From a virus, in IMG/VR virus record IMGVR_UViG_3300025530_000003: DNA of 48,438 nt; one strand, 5' to 3'. Positions 1 to 43,513 of this stretch are shown here, piece after piece (the first letter of the stretch is position 1; every line of letters starts with the position of its first letter). The notes under the pieces were generated by a model. The model saw only the letters and a program-made list of their open reading frames with translations, was not told where the DNA came from and did no database searches. A program made the position numbers and the translations under genes.

Positions 1-99
1 TTTATAAACTTTTTTGTGGTTTTTTGTAGTGGTTCATGTTGTTACTTTTACTTTACTACAGACTTTGTAGTGTGTCAAGCACTTTTTATAAACTTTTTT
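1..99. repeat. Terminal redundancy: bases 1-99 are identical to 48340-48438. This could be a circular-assembly overlap or a short direct terminal repeat.
   Basis: Base-by-base comparison of the two window ends. The identity is bounded by the window edges. Confidence 0.9.
50..78 (-). promoter_or_regulatory. Sigma-A-like promoter inside the repeat unit (TTGACA-17 nt-TAAAGT), reading leftward across the window junction
   Basis: The reverse complement of 50-78 reads TTGACA cactacaaagtctgtag TAAAGT. Confidence 0.4.
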
Positions 100-21382: not shown

Positions 21383-22084
21383 ATGCTTGAGATCAGGCAG
21401 GATTTTTTACCGAAGGGACATCGTAACCGTCCGGGGAATCCCATGTCCCCAGTTGGTATTCTGATTCACACAACAAACAACTGGCGAGACGGTGCAGGAG
21501 ATGAGATGCACGGCGAATATATTCGTAACACCAGTAAATCGGTAAGCTGGCATGTGACAGTTGACAAGGATAGTGCAACTCAGCATCTACCTTTCAACGA
21601 GAACGGTTGGCACGCTGGAGATGGTGCAAACGGTCATTACAATCGGAACTGGATTGGTCTTGAAATTGCTTGCGAAGCCGTTAATGAAGGTGAGCCGTTG
21701 GATGAAGCAACTTACAATAATGCTGTAGACGTAACGGCTCAAATCATGATGCTTCACGGATGGGACAGTCCAGACCGTATCGCACCGCATCGGAAAGTGT
21801 CTGGAAAGAATTGTCCACACGACACGCTATTTTCTTACGATAAGTTTGTAAAAGACGTTATCGAACTTATCAAGAAGCGAAAAGACGAACAACGGACTCC
21901 ATTTCCAGATGTTCCGAAGGAACTTTGGTCTGAAAAATATATTTTGAGAGCATATAATTTAGGTCTTATCAATGGTTATCCTGATGGAAACTTTTATCCG
22001 AAAGCACCTATGACAAGGGAAGAGGTAGCTACTGTTATAATTCGATTATATGATCTTATTAGTAAAGGAAGGATTGTTGAATGA
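21383..22084 (+). CDS. Endolysin: N-acetylmuramoyl-L-alanine amidase (PGRP/Amidase_2 type) with a C-terminal SLH domain
   Basis: Amidase motifs (IHTTNN, SWHVTVD, GWHAGDG, PHRKVSGKNCP). The C-terminus FPDVPKELWSEKYILRAYNLGLINGYPDGNFYPKAPMTREEVATVIIRL matches the S-layer homology pattern. Confidence 0.8.
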   Translation: MLEIRQDFLPKGHRNRPGNPMSPVGILIHTTNNWRDGAGDEMHGEYIRNTSKSVSWHVTVDKDSATQHLPFNENGWHAGDGANGHYNRNWIGLEIACEAVNEGEPLDEATYNNAVDVTAQIMMLHGWDSPDRIAPHRKVSGKNCPHDTLFSYDKFVKDVIELIKKRKDEQRTPFPDVPKELWSEKYILRAYNLGLINGYPDGNFYPKAPMTREEVATVIIRLYDLISKGRIVE

Positions 22085-23380: not shown

Positions 23381-23534
23381 TCAGTTCTAACACCGCCCAG
23401 TACTTCGTGTACGAATTACGCCCATCGAAAAACGTCATACCTCTCTTTAACAGCTTGTATCCTTTCTTCTCATAATCTTTTATTCTTTTGTCCAATGCGT
23501 TGTTTTCTGCATTTGTAATAAGTATCTTCATCAT
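23370..23534 (-). CDS. Hypothetical 54-aa protein (not in the ORF track)
   Basis: My translation is MMKILITNAENNALDKRIKDYEKKGYKLLKRG... It overlaps both neighbours (ATGA-type coupling). Confidence 0.35.
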   Translation of the reverse strand: MMKILITNAENNALDKRIKDYEKKGYKLLKRGMTFFDGRNSYTKYWAVLELNDS

Positions 23535-24025
23535 TCTCGTTTCCTCCCGTACAAATGGTAATATACCCCGTGACGAATCGCATCTCTCATGTGATCGTTA
23601 GTCTGTTTACCAAGCGCATAGTGTCGATTCCCCCTTTTTTCGAGAATTCCCATTTTAACCAGCAATTCATCTGGAACACGTGTTTTGCAAGATGGGTCTT
23701 GCAAAACGAACTTTTGTTTATGTTGCCACGCTTGCATTCGCAAATGTCCAATAAGCATAGGTGTTTCCATAGATGACCATGATTGAGCAGCAGCTTTATT
23801 CGGTTGTAACTTGAAGGCTTCGCATACAACAACATCTATTTGTGAACGAACTACATATTTTGACGCATGAAACGCTACTTCATTCCAATAAGATTCGGCA
23901 TCTGCAAAAAATCTCGCTTCGATCGTTTTTACGGAATCCAATTTTGAATCTTTGAATACCGCAATCCCTGTAGTTCCTTTTCCTTCAGCCCAATTACCCG
24001 AAGGATCGATTGATACGATTATCAT
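23531..24025 (-). CDS. ruvC: RuvC-like Holliday junction resolvase
   Basis: IVSIDPSG...GTTGIAV (first catalytic Asp), VVCEAF (Glu), and DHMRDAIRHG near the C-terminus. Confidence 0.7.
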   Translation of the reverse strand: MIIVSIDPSGNWAEGKGTTGIAVFKDSKLDSVKTIEARFFADAESYWNEVAFHASKYVVRSQIDVVVCEAFKLQPNKAAAQSWSSMETPMLIGHLRMQAWQHKQKFVLQDPSCKTRVPDELLVKMGILEKRGNRHYALGKQTNDHMRDAIRHGVYYHLYGRKRE

Positions 24026-24116
24026 GATGTTAAAATCAACTCCTTAATAAAAACATATCATATTTTACACTTGATCTACATACCTTATTACAAAATATAT
24101 CAAAGGATGTGATCTG

Positions 24117-25496
24117 ATGCTTGGTACACTTGGCGCATCGATGTTCATTACAGGTGTTGTCGGTGCAATCATGAATACTGAAAAAGCGTGCCTGAAACGA
24201 TCCATCAGACGATACTTATCCGCTACAAAGCTTTCTCCCGGAGTAAAGATGACGCTCTGTAAGCGACAGAATCGATCGTACAGGACTGAATTCACTTTAC
24301 CTTACGGATACACTATCGAAGAATTCAAATCACACCTGAAGGGGCTGGAGCAAGCCACAGCGAGTCATATTCGCTTCAGACATCTATTCGGATCAACTTG
24401 TGAACTTACTTTCGGCTTCCACCCATTCTACGAAAAGATGAATTTTACTGATGAACTTCCGATGGAACCTCTTGCCATTCCGCTTTACACTCCTTTCGGA
24501 CTTCGTACACTCGACTTCAAAGACGAAACATGTTGTCACCTTTTATGCGGTGGAGCGACTCGTATGGGAAAGTCAGCGTTTCTCAGATATGTTGCAACAC
24601 ACTTGATTCTGTCTACAGAAGGTAATGTAGATATTATATTCATTGATCATAAGGTGTCCGACTTGTACATGTTTCGAGATATTCCACAGATCAGAATTGC
24701 CGAAACTTCTGGCGAAGCCCGTGCTTATCTGAAGGATGTTCTTTCAGAAATTAATCGACGAAAGAACCTTCTCAAAAATTGTAGGGATGCTGTCGATCTT
24801 CGAGAATATCGATCCAAATATACGGACGATAAGGTAAATCCCATGTTCGTTATTATCGATGAGTATGGACGTTTCGCTGACGACAAGGTGATCCAAGAGA
24901 TTGTCACCGAGATCGCCGAAACTGCCGGTTATGTAGACGTCCATCTCATCATTTCCAGTCAGCGTCCTGATGCAAAAGACGTATTGAAGCCGAGAATTAA
25001 AGCAAACATTGTTACCAGAATGTCATTTGCCACTTTCGATGAAGTCAATTCCAAAATCATTCTCGATATTCCAGACGCTGCCCATATCGGCAAGATTCAG
25101 GGTAGGGCAATTCTTGTAGACGGTCATCCTGAACTTGTTCAGGTACCTTACATGTCCCCTTCACAAGTACAAGTTTTACTAAATAAGTATAGGAGAGATG
25201 ATTATGACGAAGCGAGACAAATTGATTATCCAATACCTGAAACATTTCCGGGTAATGGCGAGAGACCAGATCGCTCAACTAGCTTGTCCGGAAGTAGCCA
25301 GACCAGTAGTTACAGTGAACCGGATTTTGAAGCGCCTGTCGAGAGACGGTTACGTGCTTCCGATTCCGCAGGTGAAAGATCGTCCATACCTATACATGCC
25401 GAATCCGGCGATCATTCATCATCGGTCGAACAAAATCGAACATTTTCTTGGTTTAGTGGATATTTACCTTCGTTTGAAGAAACCGAAGATTTTTGA
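24117..25496 (+). CDS. FtsK/SpoIIIE-family DNA translocase-like ATPase with an N-terminal TM segment
   Basis: Walker A GGATRMGKS, Walker B FVIIDEYGRF, HLIISSQRP, and the TM segment LGASMFITGVVGAIM. The last 100 or so codons overlap the next gene. Confidence 0.75.
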   Translation: MLGTLGASMFITGVVGAIMNTEKACLKRSIRRYLSATKLSPGVKMTLCKRQNRSYRTEFTLPYGYTIEEFKSHLKGLEQATASHIRFRHLFGSTCELTFGFHPFYEKMNFTDELPMEPLAIPLYTPFGLRTLDFKDETCCHLLCGGATRMGKSAFLRYVATHLILSTEGNVDIIFIDHKVSDLYMFRDIPQIRIAETSGEARAYLKDVLSEINRRKNLLKNCRDAVDLREYRSKYTDDKVNPMFVIIDEYGRFADDKVIQEIVTEIAETAGYVDVHLIISSQRPDAKDVLKPRIKANIVTRMSFATFDEVNSKIILDIPDAAHIGKIQGRAILVDGHPELVQVPYMSPSQVQVLLNKYRRDDYDEARQIDYPIPETFPGNGERPDRSTSLSGSSQTSSYSEPDFEAPVERRLRASDSAGERSSIPIHAESGDHSSSVEQNRTFSWFSGYLPSFEETEDF

Positions 25497-25746
25497 AGTC
25501 GAACCCCAAATCAACGATGAGTATGTTCCAGATGCTTACACAAGGATCAACGATCGTCCAGTTATTATCGAATATCAACGAACGTTAATCAGCACAAAGA
25601 AGATGCAATCGAAAGTAGATGCGTTTGTTGAATCCTATGTCCGTAAACAACATGACGCAAGAACTTTACTGATTGTGTCCGATCACAACTATCCAAAGAT
25701 TACGATTCCTTCAGGTTTCCACATCATTCATAAGAAAACTAGTTGA
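25198..25746 (+). CDS. Replication-relaxation family protein (winged-helix N-terminus)
   Basis: MTKRDKLIIQYLKHFRVMARDQIAQL...RILKRLSRDGYV resembles the replication-relaxation family N-terminus. The ATG at 25204 has better RBS spacing. Confidence 0.55.
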   Translation: MIMTKRDKLIIQYLKHFRVMARDQIAQLACPEVARPVVTVNRILKRLSRDGYVLPIPQVKDRPYLYMPNPAIIHHRSNKIEHFLGLVDIYLRLKKPKIFEVEPQINDEYVPDAYTRINDRPVIIEYQRTLISTKKMQSKVDAFVESYVRKQHDARTLLIVSDHNYPKITIPSGFHIIHKKTS

Positions 25747-26416
25747 CATCTTCGTAAAATGTTTCGCCTGTTCGGGTATCTATTATAAGTGGACGGATAA
25801 GTTCGCCTAAGACATAGTTACGATTGACACCTTTAGGATAAGGAAGTATAGGATATTTTAACTGCTTCTTCAATCTCCTAGACTTCCTCGTAAAGAACAC
25901 ATATCTGTGCTTAGGTGTTCTAACTTTTCGTAGATGCTTATATTCTTCTGTATAATGTCTAGGATGCTTATTTCCCGGCATATACTTGTCCGTTCTTTCT
26001 TTTGTCTTTCCTGTGTAGATGAAGTTTGTTGCTTGATATATGTAGCCATGATGACCAACACCTTCATCTGCAAACGAAACGATGACAATATCCTCATTTC
26101 TAAGCATCCTTAACACTTTACCTACAAAGAAAGATAGCACGTTACGCCCCAAACCATCTTCAGTTACAAGTCTGTTTAATTCGTAGACTCTATGTGCATG
26201 TTCCGATCCTAAAAGACCTGTGCATAAGTTCGGTGATGCAGGTTTTCCAATAGTTAGTACACCTACCATAGTACTATCCTTAAAAAGTCCAAACGCATAA
26301 GATATTGAAGGCATACGCTGTGCATAGTGCTTTTTTAAAATAAAATCTTTCGTATCTTCGTAAGCTATTCTATTAACATGGAATCCGTTCACAGATTTAC
26401 ACCCACTTTCCTTCAT
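25739..26416 (-). CDS. Mom-like (GNAT-fold) DNA adenine modification protein candidate
   Basis: Motifs HYAQRMPSISYAFG, ELNRLV and SFADEGVGHHGYIYQATNFIYTG resemble proteins annotated as the Mom family. Recognised from memory only. Confidence 0.5.
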   Translation of the reverse strand: MKESGCKSVNGFHVNRIAYEDTKDFILKKHYAQRMPSISYAFGLFKDSTMVGVLTIGKPASPNLCTGLLGSEHAHRVYELNRLVTEDGLGRNVLSFFVGKVLRMLRNEDIVIVSFADEGVGHHGYIYQATNFIYTGKTKERTDKYMPGNKHPRHYTEEYKHLRKVRTPKHRYVFFTRKSRRLKKQLKYPILPYPKGVNRNYVLGELIRPLIIDTRTGETFYEDVN

Positions 26417-26422
26417 GCCGAT

Positions 26423-26647
26423 CTACCATCTATCTCTAAATTCCGGTGGTATACAAGTATGTTTATCAAAATGCTGTCTGGAATACATTCGGCGACATTT
26501 ATCACATCGAACCTTTGCGTATTTCCTTGCCGGTGCGCTGTTTTTGGGTCGCTCCGGCGAACATACATGGTTTTGATAGTAATAATAGCTGTATTTTTTA
26601 CGACAAGTAGGACAAGTTATCCTTTTTAAATGGTTTGGTCTACTCAT
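26423..26647 (-). CDS. Small double zinc-finger protein (two CxxC-x12-HxC motifs); possible Com-like regulator
   Basis: CPTCRKKYSYYYYQNHVC and CDKCRRMYSRQHFDKHTC. It lies 6 nt upstream of the Mom-like gene. Confidence 0.5.
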   Translation of the reverse strand: MSRPNHLKRITCPTCRKKYSYYYYQNHVCSPERPKNSAPARKYAKVRCDKCRRMYSRQHFDKHTCIPPEFRDRW

Positions 26648-34534: not shown

Positions 34535-34711
34535 TCACCCTACAATCTCATACCATTCGCCAGTTTCGACCATCGTCAACCAACGCTCGAACGGTATTCC
34601 GTACCGTTCGTAGATTTTTAATGTTGAGAATACTCTACCTGCAATATCTACCCGGTCATATGGATTCACATATGCATCATACTGACCGCATGGCTTCGGT
34701 TGATTCCCCAT
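34535..34711 (-). CDS. Hypothetical 58-aa protein (not in the ORF track)
   Basis: My translation is MGNQPKPCGQYDAYVNPYDRVDIAGRVFSTLKIYERYGIPFERWLTMVETGEWYEIVG. GAAGGAGG lies upstream. It overlaps the end of the AbrB-like gene. Confidence 0.35.
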   Translation of the reverse strand: MGNQPKPCGQYDAYVNPYDRVDIAGRVFSTLKIYERYGIPFERWLTMVETGEWYEIVG

Positions 34712-34952
34712 ATTTTCTCACAACCTCCTTCGTACAACTTTCACAAATTGCGTATTCTCCAATACGTGTGAGAATTTTATCAGAATCGCAAAAAGTGCAA
34801 TGTTTTGTAGCGTTGTATTTACGGACTCTCAATTCGTTCCCATCAGCAATGATTTCAATATCGTCACCTTCATTGATGTCAAATATTCTTCTCCACTCCA
34901 TCGGGATAACAATTCTCCCGAATTGATCGATCTTTCTAACTACTCCTATCAT
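34677..34952 (-). CDS. AbrB/SpoVT-family DNA-binding protein with a C-terminal zinc ribbon
   Basis: IDQFGRIVIPMEWRRIFDINEGDDIEII (swapped-hairpin AbrB motif), followed by CTFC...CESC. Confidence 0.7.
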   Translation of the reverse strand: MIGVVRKIDQFGRIVIPMEWRRIFDINEGDDIEIIADGNELRVRKYNATKHCTFCDSDKILTRIGEYAICESCTKEVVRKYGESTEAMRSV

Positions 34953-37850: not shown

Positions 37851-38065
37851 TCACATTTCCCGCCAGGACAGTCGATGCCGTAGGCGGTGGATTCGTCCAC
37901 CCATTTACCCTGAATCTTCCCGCTTGGACTAATCACATATCCGCCACATTCGCACTTATAACCGTATTGATAAGGAATTGTCTCGGAATCATATTCCTTT
38001 CCGCAATACCAACATTTGAATAAGACTTTCACTCTTTTCATCCTCCCACCCCGGTTCAGTGCCAT
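37844..38065 (-). CDS. Small Zn-ribbon protein
   Basis: CWYC...CECG...CPGGKC. The start is uncertain (38065 or the internal ATG). Confidence 0.45.
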   Translation of the reverse strand: MALNRGGRMKRVKVLFKCWYCGKEYDSETIPYQYGYKCECGGYVISPSGKIQGKWVDESTAYGIDCPGGKCEW

Positions 38066-38088
38066 TCGCCCTTTTCGGACAACCTGTC

Positions 38089-38250
38089 CTACTTCACCGC
38101 TCCCTTCTTCCGCTGGTTGAACTGGTCAGGCGTTCGCAAGATGTACTCACGCCCGGACACGCGGATCACGGTCGGCACTCCTTTTTTCACCTTCAGGATC
38201 GTCACGATCGGGCGGTAACGGTGACCCTTCGGTCGATCGTATTTTTTCAT
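38089..38250 (-). CDS. Hypothetical basic 53-aa protein (internal start of the 99-aa track ORF)
   Basis: The ATG at 38250 overlaps the upstream stop (GAATGA). The product is MKKYDRPKGHRYRPIVTILKVKKG... Confidence 0.4.
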   Translation of the reverse strand: MKKYDRPKGHRYRPIVTILKVKKGVPTVIRVSGREYILRTPDQFNQRKKGAVK

Positions 38251-38720
38251 TCCACCGTCACCCCGATTTCGCGGAGGATGTTGCGGGCGCGTTGGCCGCT
38301 GTCGTAATAAATCGCTTCTGCCGGTTCTACCAACGTTCCATGACGGCTGCGAAACTCTCGCCTGTAATTGACCGCATCCGCATACCACCGCAACCCCTCG
38401 ATCAGCTTGTCACGTTGCTGTAAATACCGCTCGGCATCTTCTGCAAGATCATGTTCAATTCGCATATACGCTTCGATGATCTTCTTTCTTCCCTCGTTTT
38501 CCTCCCGCAACCGCTCAATCTCCTGATGTGCGGATTGAAGTTGTTCTTCCAGTTTCAAACACTCGTCTTGCCAGACTATTTCCTCTTTCAATCGCTCCCG
38601 CAACTTCCGGTTTTCCTCTTCAAGCTCGCACAATTCCGCCAGCAGGAAGCCACGGTCGATCTTCTCCAACGCTTCCCTAATATCTGCAATCTTCTTTTCG
38701 GTGTCAGTCACGGGTTTCAT
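38247..38720 (-). CDS. Hypothetical coiled-coil protein
   Basis: 157 aa and E/L/R-rich (LRERLKEE..., EIERLREENEGRKK). Lies in a GC-elevated block. Confidence 0.5.
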   Translation of the reverse strand: MKPVTDTEKKIADIREALEKIDRGFLLAELCELEEENRKLRERLKEEIVWQDECLKLEEQLQSAHQEIERLREENEGRKKIIEAYMRIEHDLAEDAERYLQQRDKLIEGLRWYADAVNYRREFRSRHGTLVEPAEAIYYDSGQRARNILREIGVTVE

Positions 38721-39207
38721 CCTCCCCCTCCATCACCGCCAGCAGACGGCATTTGACCATAGCTTCTGCGGCTGATTTGGATTCTACTTGTGCTAATATT
38801 CGTACACCTATAACATCATCAGGCTTATAAATCTCAGCCAAATATGTGCCGTCTGAATAACATAAGTCAAAATTCCATTTTTTCGGTCTATCATGCTCCC
38901 ATACCTCCCACGCTGCGGCGATGTCTTCGCTGGGACTCCACTTATCTTGCCTTTTGCACAAACCGCTTTCGTTTCGCCAATATCCTATATCTGAATCGAG
39001 AAACCATCCCATCACTTTTTCCGCCACTAGCGCATTCAGCTCCCACCCCGGCTGCATCTTCATGATCTCATCACGTGTCATGATTCGGTTCCTCCTGTTC
39101 CCAGATTTTTGCCGTAGATACATACATTCTTCCTTGCAGTAGCACGGTTCTCCAGATTTCGGACATTCGAGCATCCACCAAAGTGGCGCTTTTTTGTCAT
39201 TTGTCAT
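38704..39207 (-). CDS. Hypothetical protein, possibly with a phage ABA-sandwich-like domain
   Basis: The WELNALVAEKVMGW motif resembles that domain family. The N-terminus is Cys-rich. Confidence 0.35.
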   Translation of the reverse strand: MTNDKKAPLWWMLECPKSGEPCYCKEECMYLRQKSGNRRNRIMTRDEIMKMQPGWELNALVAEKVMGWFLDSDIGYWRNESGLCKRQDKWSPSEDIAAAWEVWEHDRPKKWNFDLCYSDGTYLAEIYKPDDVIGVRILAQVESKSAAEAMVKCRLLAVMEGEDETRD

Positions 39208-42964: not shown

Positions 42965-43513
42965 TTAGTTAGCTGGAATCTCTTTTAAGGTTATCGGCTT
43001 GTCTGCGATAACCAAACGTTGCGCAAGCTCATCCCCCGACAGATCCCCGTCCTTGGTGTAGTCGAACCCGCGGATCGTGACCGCCGTATACGCGCCAACT
43101 ACTGTAATCAGATGTGGCGGTAATGTACCAACAACATGTTTACCTGCGATCTTGTCCGGAGTTACTGCATCATACACCGGCACGTCTCCGTATCGATCGA
43201 GCAATAGATCAACCGTACCTTGGTGACGGGATACAATGACCGTATCAAGATCGTCCGCGTTGTCAATCGTCTCAATGCGGTATTTACGGACATCGAGATC
43301 AGCTGCAATGATCTCATCCGGCGTGTTAAACACCGCGCCGCGTGGCAACTGTAGAGCATAGTATTCCGACACGCCTTGGTCCGCTAGTACGGACGGCGCA
43401 AGCGATGACAATACGACTTCTTCCGTTCCTTTTGAATAAGCGGACAATCCAGCGATTGCCGCAAAGCCAGAAGCTACAATCTTTTTTGTTTCAAGCAATT
43501 CTTTCAATTTCAT
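42965..43513 (-). CDS. Hypothetical protein whose C-terminal half resembles the Csx16 / VVA1548 CRISPR-associated family
   Basis: VSRHQGTVDLL...GKHVVGTLPPHL...GDLSGDELAQRL resembles the Csx16 pattern recalled from memory. The ORF is visibly more GC-rich than its neighbours. Confidence 0.3.
   Translation of the reverse strand: MKLKELLETKKIVASGFAAIAGLSAYSKGTEEVVLSSLAPSVLADQGVSEYYALQLPRGAVFNTPDEIIAADLDVRKYRIETIDNADDLDTVIVSRHQGTVDLLLDRYGDVPVYDAVTPDKIAGKHVVGTLPPHLITVVGAYTAVTIRGFDYTKDGDLSGDELAQRLVIADKPITLKEIPAN

Follow-up and report, generated by a model that had tools for sequence, protein, structure and literature searches.

Positions 24117-25746 of the virus record IMGVR_UViG_3300025530_000003, whose whole stretch of 48,438 nt is called the window here, carry on the + strand two adjacent genes, one for an FtsK/TcpA-type ATPase with a predicted membrane anchor (the motor) and one for a small replication-relaxation protein that resembles MobC relaxases. 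We propose, at a probability of roughly 45%, that the pair serves as an accessory module for processing DNA and pumping it across a membrane, the sporulation septum being the favoured barrier; the role we favour, which is unproven, is that phage DNA is delivered in this way into the forespore. The motor gene and the small-protein gene were adjacent, with the motor first, in every case seen, namely in phages, 346 plasmids, prophages and ~25 metagenomic contigs, and on this distribution the motor and the MobC-like nuclease appear to behave as one unit. The cassette itself had already been recognised; what is new here is a selected dual-coding overlap of the two genes, their status as a core part of a lytic phage lineage, and the distribution of carriers.

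The motor and the small protein

The features of the cassette are as follows.

24117-25496, + strand: FtsK/TcpA-type ATPase gene, 459 aa (Pfam, PHROG, AlphaFold (AF2), Foldseek)
24120-24173, + strand: N-terminal hydrophobic helix, residues 2-19, predicted single membrane anchor (Kyte-Doolittle, AF2)
24246-25190, + strand: alpha-like domain (residues 44-100) and RecA-type motor (residues 120-358) (AF2, Foldseek, motifs)
25206-25493, + strand: C-terminal tail of the motor, residues 364-459, in the -1 frame of the nuclease gene
25204-25496, + strand: dual-coding overlap of the motor and small-protein genes, 293 nt (299 nt from the first ATG)
25204-25746, + strand: replication-relaxation (MOBC-superfamily) gene, 180 aa (PHROG, Pfam, AF2, hhalign)
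25204-25398, + strand: winged helix, residues 1-65 (AF2)
25426-25743, + strand: PD-(D/E)XK-like domain, residues 75-180 (AF2)

An initial annotation, made from the letters alone, had described an FtsK/SpoIIIE-like ATPase with Walker motifs and a membrane anchor, and this description was borne out by matches to Pfam FtsK_SpoIIIE (PF01580; E 1e-9, 38.6 bits against a cut-off of 24) and to PHROG 1358, 'FtsK/SpoIIIE-like protein' (E 5e-51), and by the N-terminal helix. Walker A (GGATRMGKS) occupies residues 145-153 (24549-24575), Walker B (FVIIDEYGRF) residues 244-253 (24846-24875), and the SQRPD...IKAN motif lies at 24954-25007; G146, R149, G151, K152, D248, E249, Q282, R283, P284 and D285 are among the residues invariant across 62 motor homologues. 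The AF2 model built on these 62 homologues has a mean predicted local distance difference test (pLDDT) score of 82, and in a Foldseek search it was closest to TcpA, the coupling protein of pCW3 (E 7e-23), followed by the alpha-beta motor of FtsK (E 5e-22), each aligned over about 360-378 columns; the alignments with the FtsK motor extended over about 364-379 columns, with template-modelling (TM) scores of 0.62-0.69 when normalised by the target. By this comparison an alpha domain stands ahead of the beta domain, that is, the FtsK alpha-beta architecture is present, and type VII secretion ATPases gave a poorer match that was confined to the ATPase domain.

The N-terminal 19 residues form the peak Kyte-Doolittle window of the motor, AF2 places a helix at residues 2-19, and homologues are hydrophobic and G/A-rich in this part. 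No multi-span membrane domain was found in the motor, which has this single hydrophobic helix against four in FtsK/SpoIIIE, and no C-terminal gamma winged helix was found either, residues 364-459 being modelled as disordered and having no domain match. Scans with NCBIfam and PADLOC gave domain-level matches for the ATPase only and none for the small protein; PADLOC points to a likeness between the ATPase domain and FtsK-like modules in the defence proteins SspH and mad8.

The open reading frame (ORF) of the small protein extends over 25198-25746 (182 aa) when read from its first ATG; the likely start is the second ATG at 25204, which stands 7 nt past an AGGAGAG and matches an identical 180-aa database protein. 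The small protein matches PHROG 2190, labelled replication initiation, with E 4e-24, and Pfam Replic_Relax (PF13814) with E 1.8e-5 and 25.3 bits, a score exactly at the gathering cut-off and covering only residues 13-59 in the winged helix; most full-length homologues carry PF13814, and the name given by NCBI is 'replication-relaxation family protein'. The AF2 model has a mean pLDDT of 94 and consists of a winged helix followed by an alpha/beta domain. The winged-helix replication-relaxation assignment made in the initial annotation is thereby supported by the PHROG match, the Pfam match at the cut-off and the predicted fold.

Two alignments were compared, one of close relatives and a broader one including BtCS33, Bfsp1 and a B. 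mycoides plasmid at 32-64% identity. Invariant in both are H80, E100, P109-D110, E123-x-Q125 and K137, and S75 and H150 are invariant in only one of the two (A1). These residues would form a pattern of the PD-(D/E)XK type, in accord with the published placement of Replic_Relax in the PD-(D/E)XK superfamily, and conservation of this kind indicates that the nuclease-type residues are under purifying selection. Foldseek gave weak matches of the small protein (E 4e-3 to 5e-2) to winged helix-turn-helix proteins and to the PD-(D/E)XK nucleases Bax1, Can2, EndoMS and EcoO109I; there was also a weak Pfam match to CoiA_nuc, and a sequence search of solved structures with the small protein returned nothing.

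PF13814 has been described as a domain of the MOBC relaxase superfamily, which includes CloDF13 MobC and pAD1 TraX; MOBC relaxases combine a winged helix with a restriction-endonuclease-like active site, and they form no covalent intermediate. When a profile of the phage and plasmid proteins was compared by hhalign with the MOBC-typed 'replication-relaxation family protein' of pTEF1, the two aligned with a probability of 91% (E 1e-6) over 85 columns. No profile alignment of the C-terminal domain to a characterised MOBC relaxase was obtained. We place the small protein provisionally in a small, divergent branch of the MOBC relaxase superfamily, because an exhaustive profile search reached only 109 representative clusters and no mainstream relaxases, and because the pTEF1 alignment is limited to those 85 columns.

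The dual-coding overlap

Similarity of the motor to its relatives stops at about residue 365, where the second gene begins, and the last 94 residues are encoded in the -1 frame of the winged-helix coding region. The tail so encoded is predicted to be disordered (pLDDT < 50) and is serine-rich, has a net charge of -9 and ends in FEETEDF. When the second gene was resampled with synonymous codons or permuted, only 0.01% and 0.1% of trials, respectively, kept the motor frame open over its 459 codons (P 1e-4 and 1e-3), and the median position of the simulated motor stop was codon 367. At the 24 codons able to create a stop in the motor frame, the preceding codon ends in T in one case only. The codon log-odds score of the tail frame (by the test described below for the genome) is +0.058, and motor homologues of 68-72% identity have tails of the same length. 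All syntenic relatives have the overlap, at 89-284 nt, and it exceeds the expectation from synonymous permutation (P < 0.05) in 10 of the 19 loci tested, at 137-284 nt. The motor frame is held open across the overlap by codon choice, i.e., this is selected dual coding, a finding new in the present analysis. We assign no function to the tail, because much of its apparent conservation is imposed by the other frame.

Two further possibilities were considered for the junction of the two genes. A programmed frameshift fusing the motor and the small protein would need a +1 shift, and the nuclease frame is stopped 8 codons before its ATG; we found no support for it. The protein P0128 (L038:4001-5812), which looks like a natural fusion of a motor with a winged helix (PF01580 and PF13814), is probably an assembly frameshift and was dropped as evidence because neighbouring genes on the same contig are also split.

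Conservation in a lineage of lytic phages

Megablast found no match to the 3-kb region among 50,697 phage records, and relatives were therefore sought through proteins. In about 25 metagenomic phage contigs of 30-54 kb the pair occupies the same position, with a RuvC-like gene on one side and the Pol A gene on the other, and the contigs share the order large tail protein, lysis genes, RuvC-like gene (-), motor (+), small protein (+), variable genes, Pol A (-) and primase-helicase (-). Identity across this lineage is 34-62% for the motor, 41-65% for the small protein and 38-64% for Pol A and primase-helicase. Since the pair has diverged in step with Pol A and primase-helicase, we regard it as an old and vertically inherited part of the lineage and not as a recent insertion; the initial annotation had taken the cassette to be embedded in the replication arm, and this view is not sustained. 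The pair appears from this synteny to be a stable core element of an integrase-less lytic lineage, which is a point added by the present analysis. In some relatives a short hydrophobic ORF lies directly upstream of the motor (e.g., L011:6624-6862), as it does in Bacillus plasmids (64 aa) and in BtCS33 (gp21); the window does not have this ORF.

Other carriers and host range

The best match outside the lineage is the phi29-like phage Bfsp1, at 44-45% identity for both proteins, and identity to the small proteins of GBSV1 and BtCS33 is 35%. On one temperate phage contig (L023:4597-8537) the pair adjoins a serine integrase, and on another contig (L025:590-6196) it lies beside a phi29-type packaging ATPase (PHROG 2150), with one unassigned opposite-strand ORF of 672 aa between them; the presence of the cassette in both settings indicates that it has moved between unrelated phage types. 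In temperate phages of the BtCS33 type and in chromosomal prophages the pair adjoins an Xre-type regulator near lysis or integration genes. A search for the pair in plasmids, which the initial annotation had suggested, found it in 346 of them, often near ParA genes, and 226 of the 346 are typed as non-mobilisable.

The named carriers are all spore-forming Bacillales, including Bacillus, Priestia, Geobacillus, Cytobacillus, Metabacillus, Halobacillus, Anoxybacillus, Brevibacillus, Paenibacillus and others. At the BLAST level there were no matches in the non-spore-forming Staphylococcus, Listeria, Enterococcus and Lactobacillales, nor in Clostridium records. Two records named 'Staphylococcus phage SpaA1' match with scores and coordinates identical to those of the B. 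cereus phage BceA1.

Comparison with known systems

Reports of FtsK/SpoIIIE homologues in the genomes of Bacillus phages go back to the mid-2000s, and the FtsK and replication-relaxation pair is routinely annotated in Bacillus phages, with varied guesses on its role. By HHpred, Pathria et al. (2012) connected CloDF13 MobC with the small protein of GBSV1, Gamma and others, and they termed the module a 'DNA translocation operon'; the novelty implied by the initial annotation accordingly does not hold. The group so named comprises orf200/201 of 0305phi8-36, gp27.3/27.4 of SPO1, and the corresponding genes of GBSV1, BV1 and Gamma/Wbeta/Cherry/Fah, and pairs annotated as FtsK/SpoIIIE with a replication-relaxation protein occur in BtCS33, phiCM3, PfEFR-4, the B. 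pumilus phages Finn, Riggi and Eoghan, 268TH007 and Bfsp1. The pair of the window shares with these Bacillaceae phage cassettes the same two families in the same order, adjacent and co-oriented, and on these grounds it most probably belongs to the recognised group of FtsK and replication-relaxation cassettes of Bacillaceae phages and plasmids. It differs from them in being a core pair of an uncultivated lineage that encodes Pol A and has no integrase, in having no Xre regulator and no small ORF upstream, and in its selected overlap of 293 nt; the overlap is 11 nt in BtCS33, and in Bfsp1 it is 17 nt as annotated and ~90 nt by the open frame. The motor of 0305phi8-36 is VirD4/AAA_10-like, whereas that of the window is FtsK-like. 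When the operon of 0305phi8-36, which encodes a MobC-like relaxase and a VirD4-like ATPase, was deleted, no defect in laboratory growth or plaques was seen (Pathria et al., 2012).

The initial annotation had also pointed to plasmid and integrative and conjugative element (ICE) modules, and a resemblance to their coupling-protein and relaxase pairs is upheld by the membership of PF13814 in the MOBC superfamily and by the motor fold, which is closest to TcpA. With MobB-MobC of CloDF13 and TraW-TraX of pAD1/pTEF1 the window pair has in common a winged helix followed by a restriction-endonuclease-like domain, encoded just 3' of a membrane-anchored DNA-transport ATPase; the order in pTEF1 is coupling protein, small ORF and replication-relaxation gene. 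The window protein has 180 aa against 261 aa for the MOBC protein of pTEF1, with similarity demonstrated for the winged helix and one helix, and in contrast to MOBC systems its partner is of the FtsK/TcpA type and not of the VirD4 type, with no secretion system and no origin of transfer (oriT) identified in the window. Published accounts pair MOBC relaxases with VirD4-type coupling proteins only, CloDF13 and pAD1 included. The motor is similar to the TcpA-type coupling proteins (pCW3 TcpA, Tn916 Orf21, ICEBs1 ConQ) in being a membrane-anchored FtsK-like alpha-beta motor without a gamma domain that is encoded upstream of a DNA-processing gene. The partners of TcpA-type proteins, however, are an FA-type secretion system and relaxases of the Rep_trans or tyrosine-recombinase type; the window has none of these, and one membrane helix is predicted for its motor.

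SpoIIIE, FtsK, SftA and the Streptomyces TraB, which serves double-stranded DNA transfer of actinomycete ICEs (AICEs), have the same motor fold and motifs, including SQRPD...IKAN. The window motor lacks the gamma domain and the four-helix membrane domain of FtsK and SpoIIIE, and no clt-, KOPS- or SRS-like repeats were identified. TraB and FtsK read DNA by means of a winged helix; in the window the winged helix is on the separate nuclease-like protein, which could supply that role.

Flanking genes and the genome

The regions flanking the cassette are as follows.

23531-24025, - strand: RuvC-like gene (PHROG 1981, unknown function, E 6e-17; PHROG 159, RuvC-like, E 0.0066)
24026-24116: divergent intergenic region between the RuvC-like gene and the motor gene, 91 nt
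25739-25746: convergent overlap of the small-protein gene and the Mom-like gene, 8 nt
25739-26416, - strand: Mom-like DNA modification gene (Pfam Mom E 2e-39; PHROG 1384 E 3.5e-67)

The layout described in the initial annotation, i.e., divergence from the upstream gene and an 8-nt convergent overlap with a Mom-like gene without a terminator, was found as described; its label 'RuvC' for the upstream gene is weak, at E 0.0066 against PHROG 159. This RuvC-like gene, divergent from the cassette, is syntenic in the contigs L003-L022 at 37-52% identity. In the 8-nt overlap the stop of the nuclease gene is the TGA at 25744-25746 and that of the Mom-like gene lies at 25739-25741 on the - strand, and no terminator-like site was found near 25739-25746. 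The Mom-like gene is specific to the window, and the related contigs have a dUTPase gene and small ORFs in its place.

An AAGGA Shine-Dalgarno sequence stands 9 nt ahead of the motor ATG, and the 91-nt intergenic region presumably holds a promoter of the cassette's own; a scan for the sigma-70 consensus found no site in 24026-24116. A CATATCA(C/T)-like motif occurs in this region and in the equivalent regions of L003, L005, L006, L009, L010 and L012, and it may be a lineage-specific promoter or operator element. The search around the cassette for terminators, sigma-70 promoters, iterons and inverted or tandem repeats gave nothing above chance.

The first and last 99 nt of the window (1-99 and 48340-48438) are identical, with a unit of ~85 nt restarting at nt 86, and because of these identical ends we take the window to be a closed assembly, circular or terminally redundant, of ~48.3 kb. 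An arm on the + strand at 0.3-22.3 kb has the genes for the terminase, the portal protein, head and tail proteins, a holin and an endolysin of the Amidase_2-SLH type, and the arm on the - strand encodes Pol A, a primase-helicase, a SNF2 helicase, a PD-(D/E)XK exonuclease, AAA_24 and DUF669 proteins and many small unknowns. Among the ~60 window ORFs scanned with Pfam and PHROG there was no integrase, no CI-type repressor and no secretion-system family, in line with the initial annotation as to the first two. A codon-usage log-odds test trained on ten confident genes gave clearly positive + strand scores between 22.3 and 48.4 kb for the motor (+0.096) and the small-protein ORF (+0.117) only, which confirms that they are the only two + strand genes in the replication arm; a few short + strand ORFs inside - strand genes scored from 0 to +0.066. 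For one of these places, where a 74-aa ORF with zinc-ribbon-like CxxC pairs (26423-26647, -) lies opposite a 54-aa ORF with a codon score of +0.066 (26446-26610, +), the coding strand is ambiguous.

The endolysin (21383-22084, +) combines Amidase_2 with an S-layer homology (SLH) domain (E 4.8e-15), and this combination points to a Gram-positive (Bacillota) host with an S-layer, the sole host clue that we found. Scans of genome contigs gave no host; one match was a mis-binned phage contig and two were distant FtsK matches without the partner gene. A small protein at 34677-34952 (-) has an AbrB/MazE-type (SpoVT-AbrB) DNA-binding domain (Pfam MazE_antitoxin, E 3e-12), and the SpoVT-AbrB fold is that of Bacillus transition-state and sporulation regulators. 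The 182-aa product of 42965-43513 (-) is barely over the cut-off for Pfam Cas_VVA1548, 'putative CRISPR-associated protein' (E 1.7e-5, 25.3 bits against 25), and the G+C peak of the window, 0.50 against ~0.41, lies at 38001-39000 and encodes a Phage_ABA_S-domain protein (38704-39207).

Proposed role and alternatives

We propose the following course of events for the pair. With its winged helix the small protein would recognise a site in the phage DNA, which it would nick or cut with its PD-(D/E)XK active site in the manner of a MOBC relaxase, standing in at the same time for the sequence-reading gamma domain of FtsK, which is absent from the motor. Through a presumed physical coupling of both proteins, the DNA would be passed to the membrane-anchored and presumably hexameric motor of the FtsK/TcpA type and pumped across a membrane barrier. 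If this barrier is the sporulation septum, the direction of transport would be such that the genome of a lytic phage enters the forespore and survives within the spore.

We favour the septum because all carriers are spore formers, because the pair occurs in phi29-like phages, and because plasmids and phages share the problem of access to the forespore. The genomes of phi29-like phages are linear, capped by terminal proteins and replicated by protein priming, and these phages are well known for entrapment in spores; their carriage of the pair argues for the septum since they are known for such entrapment and would be poor substrates for plasmid-type replication or relaxase-led transfer. Homologues of spoIIIE have been reported as enriched among phages of spore formers, and entrapment was proposed there. 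An accessory role is suggested by the crossing of the pair between unrelated phage types and lifestyles, by its insertion or deletion between near-identical phages, and by the dispensability of the related 0305phi8-36 operon; two B. subtilis phages that are otherwise 96% identical differ mainly by a 2.5-kb segment carrying the pair. In phage Fah the ATPase gene is delayed-early in lytic infection.

Several points weigh against this proposal. None of the Foldseek matches of the small protein to solved structures is below E 4e-3, the pTEF1 alignment covers the winged helix and the next helix and not the rest of the nuclease domain, and the profile search that reached 109 clusters met no mainstream relaxase. 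The single membrane helix of the motor is unlike the four-helix channel domain of SpoIIIE, and no binding site, iteron or oriT-like repeat was detected near the cassette. The restriction to spore formers may merely mirror phylogenetic reach, with no Clostridium carrier seen, and our literature search found no functional experiments on the FtsK and replication-relaxation pair.

A more specific version of forespore delivery, which we consider rather unlikely, would make the pair a self-contained device of Bacillales phages and plasmids, in which the nuclease marks the DNA and loads it on a septum-anchored pump independently of host SpoIIIE and Spo0J, the disordered tail of the motor tethering the two proteins.

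Conjugative mobilisation is an alternative to which we attach a small probability. The small protein would here be a true MOBC relaxase nicking an oriT of the phage, and the motor a coupling protein docking on the type IV secretion system of a resident ICE or plasmid, so that phage DNA would pass from cell to cell without virions, a route suggested by Pathria et al. for biofilms. The superfamily membership of PF13814 and the published HHpred links between phage proteins and CloDF13 MobC speak for this alternative, as do the gene order of pTEF1, the position of TcpA as the closest solved structure to the motor, and the location of tcpA upstream of the relaxase gene in ICEs and in integrative and mobilisable elements (IMEs). 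However, the ~60 ORFs scanned include no secretion-system genes, and in streptococcal IMEs the MOBC relaxases are paired with VirD4-type coupling proteins and never with TcpA-type ones. Mobilisation also fits poorly with the 226 of 346 carrier plasmids typed as non-mobilisable and with the terminal-protein-capped linear genomes of phi29-like phages, which should be poor relaxase substrates, and the family was not found in non-spore-forming Bacillota, though the same ICE families occur there.

Equally improbable in our estimate is a conflict system, in which the nuclease would cut foreign DNA and the membrane ATPase would expel or block incoming DNA, either to exclude superinfecting phages and competitors or to attack host DNA. 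In prophages and plasmids the pair does lie in accessory regions beside its own divergent Xre-type regulator, near Rap-Phr and lysis/lysogeny modules; its insertion-deletion behaviour, the dispensable operon of 0305phi8-36, and the likeness of the ATPase domain to SspH and mad8 modules are also consistent with such a function. Against it, the small protein has no PADLOC family match and the pair matches no known system, and the pair has stayed a syntenic core through the deep divergence of the lytic lineage, whereas defence cargo usually turns over fast; delayed-early expression in lytic infection by Fah is a further point against it.

Still less probable is plasmid-like replication, maintenance or segregation of the phage genome, close to the view of the pair as a 'remnant of a plasmid prophage'. 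In its favour, ParA genes are found close to the pair on plasmids and phage-plasmids of Bacillus, the label of PHROG 2190 is replication initiation, and the phage has no integrase, from which the initial annotation had drawn the idea of episomal maintenance. This idea is not borne out, because the same pair is present in integrase-bearing temperate phages, in prophages and in phi29-like phages with protein-primed replication, and the existence of integrase-bearing and phi29-like carriers argues against plasmid-like maintenance as the common function. The phage encodes a full set of replication proteins itself (Pol A, primase-helicase, SNF2 helicase, PD-(D/E)XK exonuclease, AAA_24, DUF669), purifying selection in lytic lineages is not expected of a decaying remnant, and the 'replication' in the family name stems from one cryptic plasmid, pUA140, alone.

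Membrane-associated processing of replicating DNA, in which the pair would act with the RuvC-like resolvase to anchor, untangle or resolve concatemers before packaging, could draw on the constant RuvC-like adjacency across the lineage, on the position of the pair after the packaging ATPase on the late strand of phi29-like genomes, and on the action of cellular FtsK in chromosome dimer resolution, but it has little likelihood, as the RuvC-like neighbour is absent in other carriers, the related 0305phi8-36 operon is dispensable for plaque growth, and most phages with the same replication module do not have the pair.

Significance

As it stands, the pair in the window is a further example of a recognised but uncharacterised cassette. 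It has been retained over long evolutionary time in purely lytic lineages, and it also moves between unrelated phage types. If the module proves to transport DNA of phages or plasmids into spores or into adjacent cells, this would account for the survival of lytic phages during host dormancy and would constitute a new route of virus transmission.

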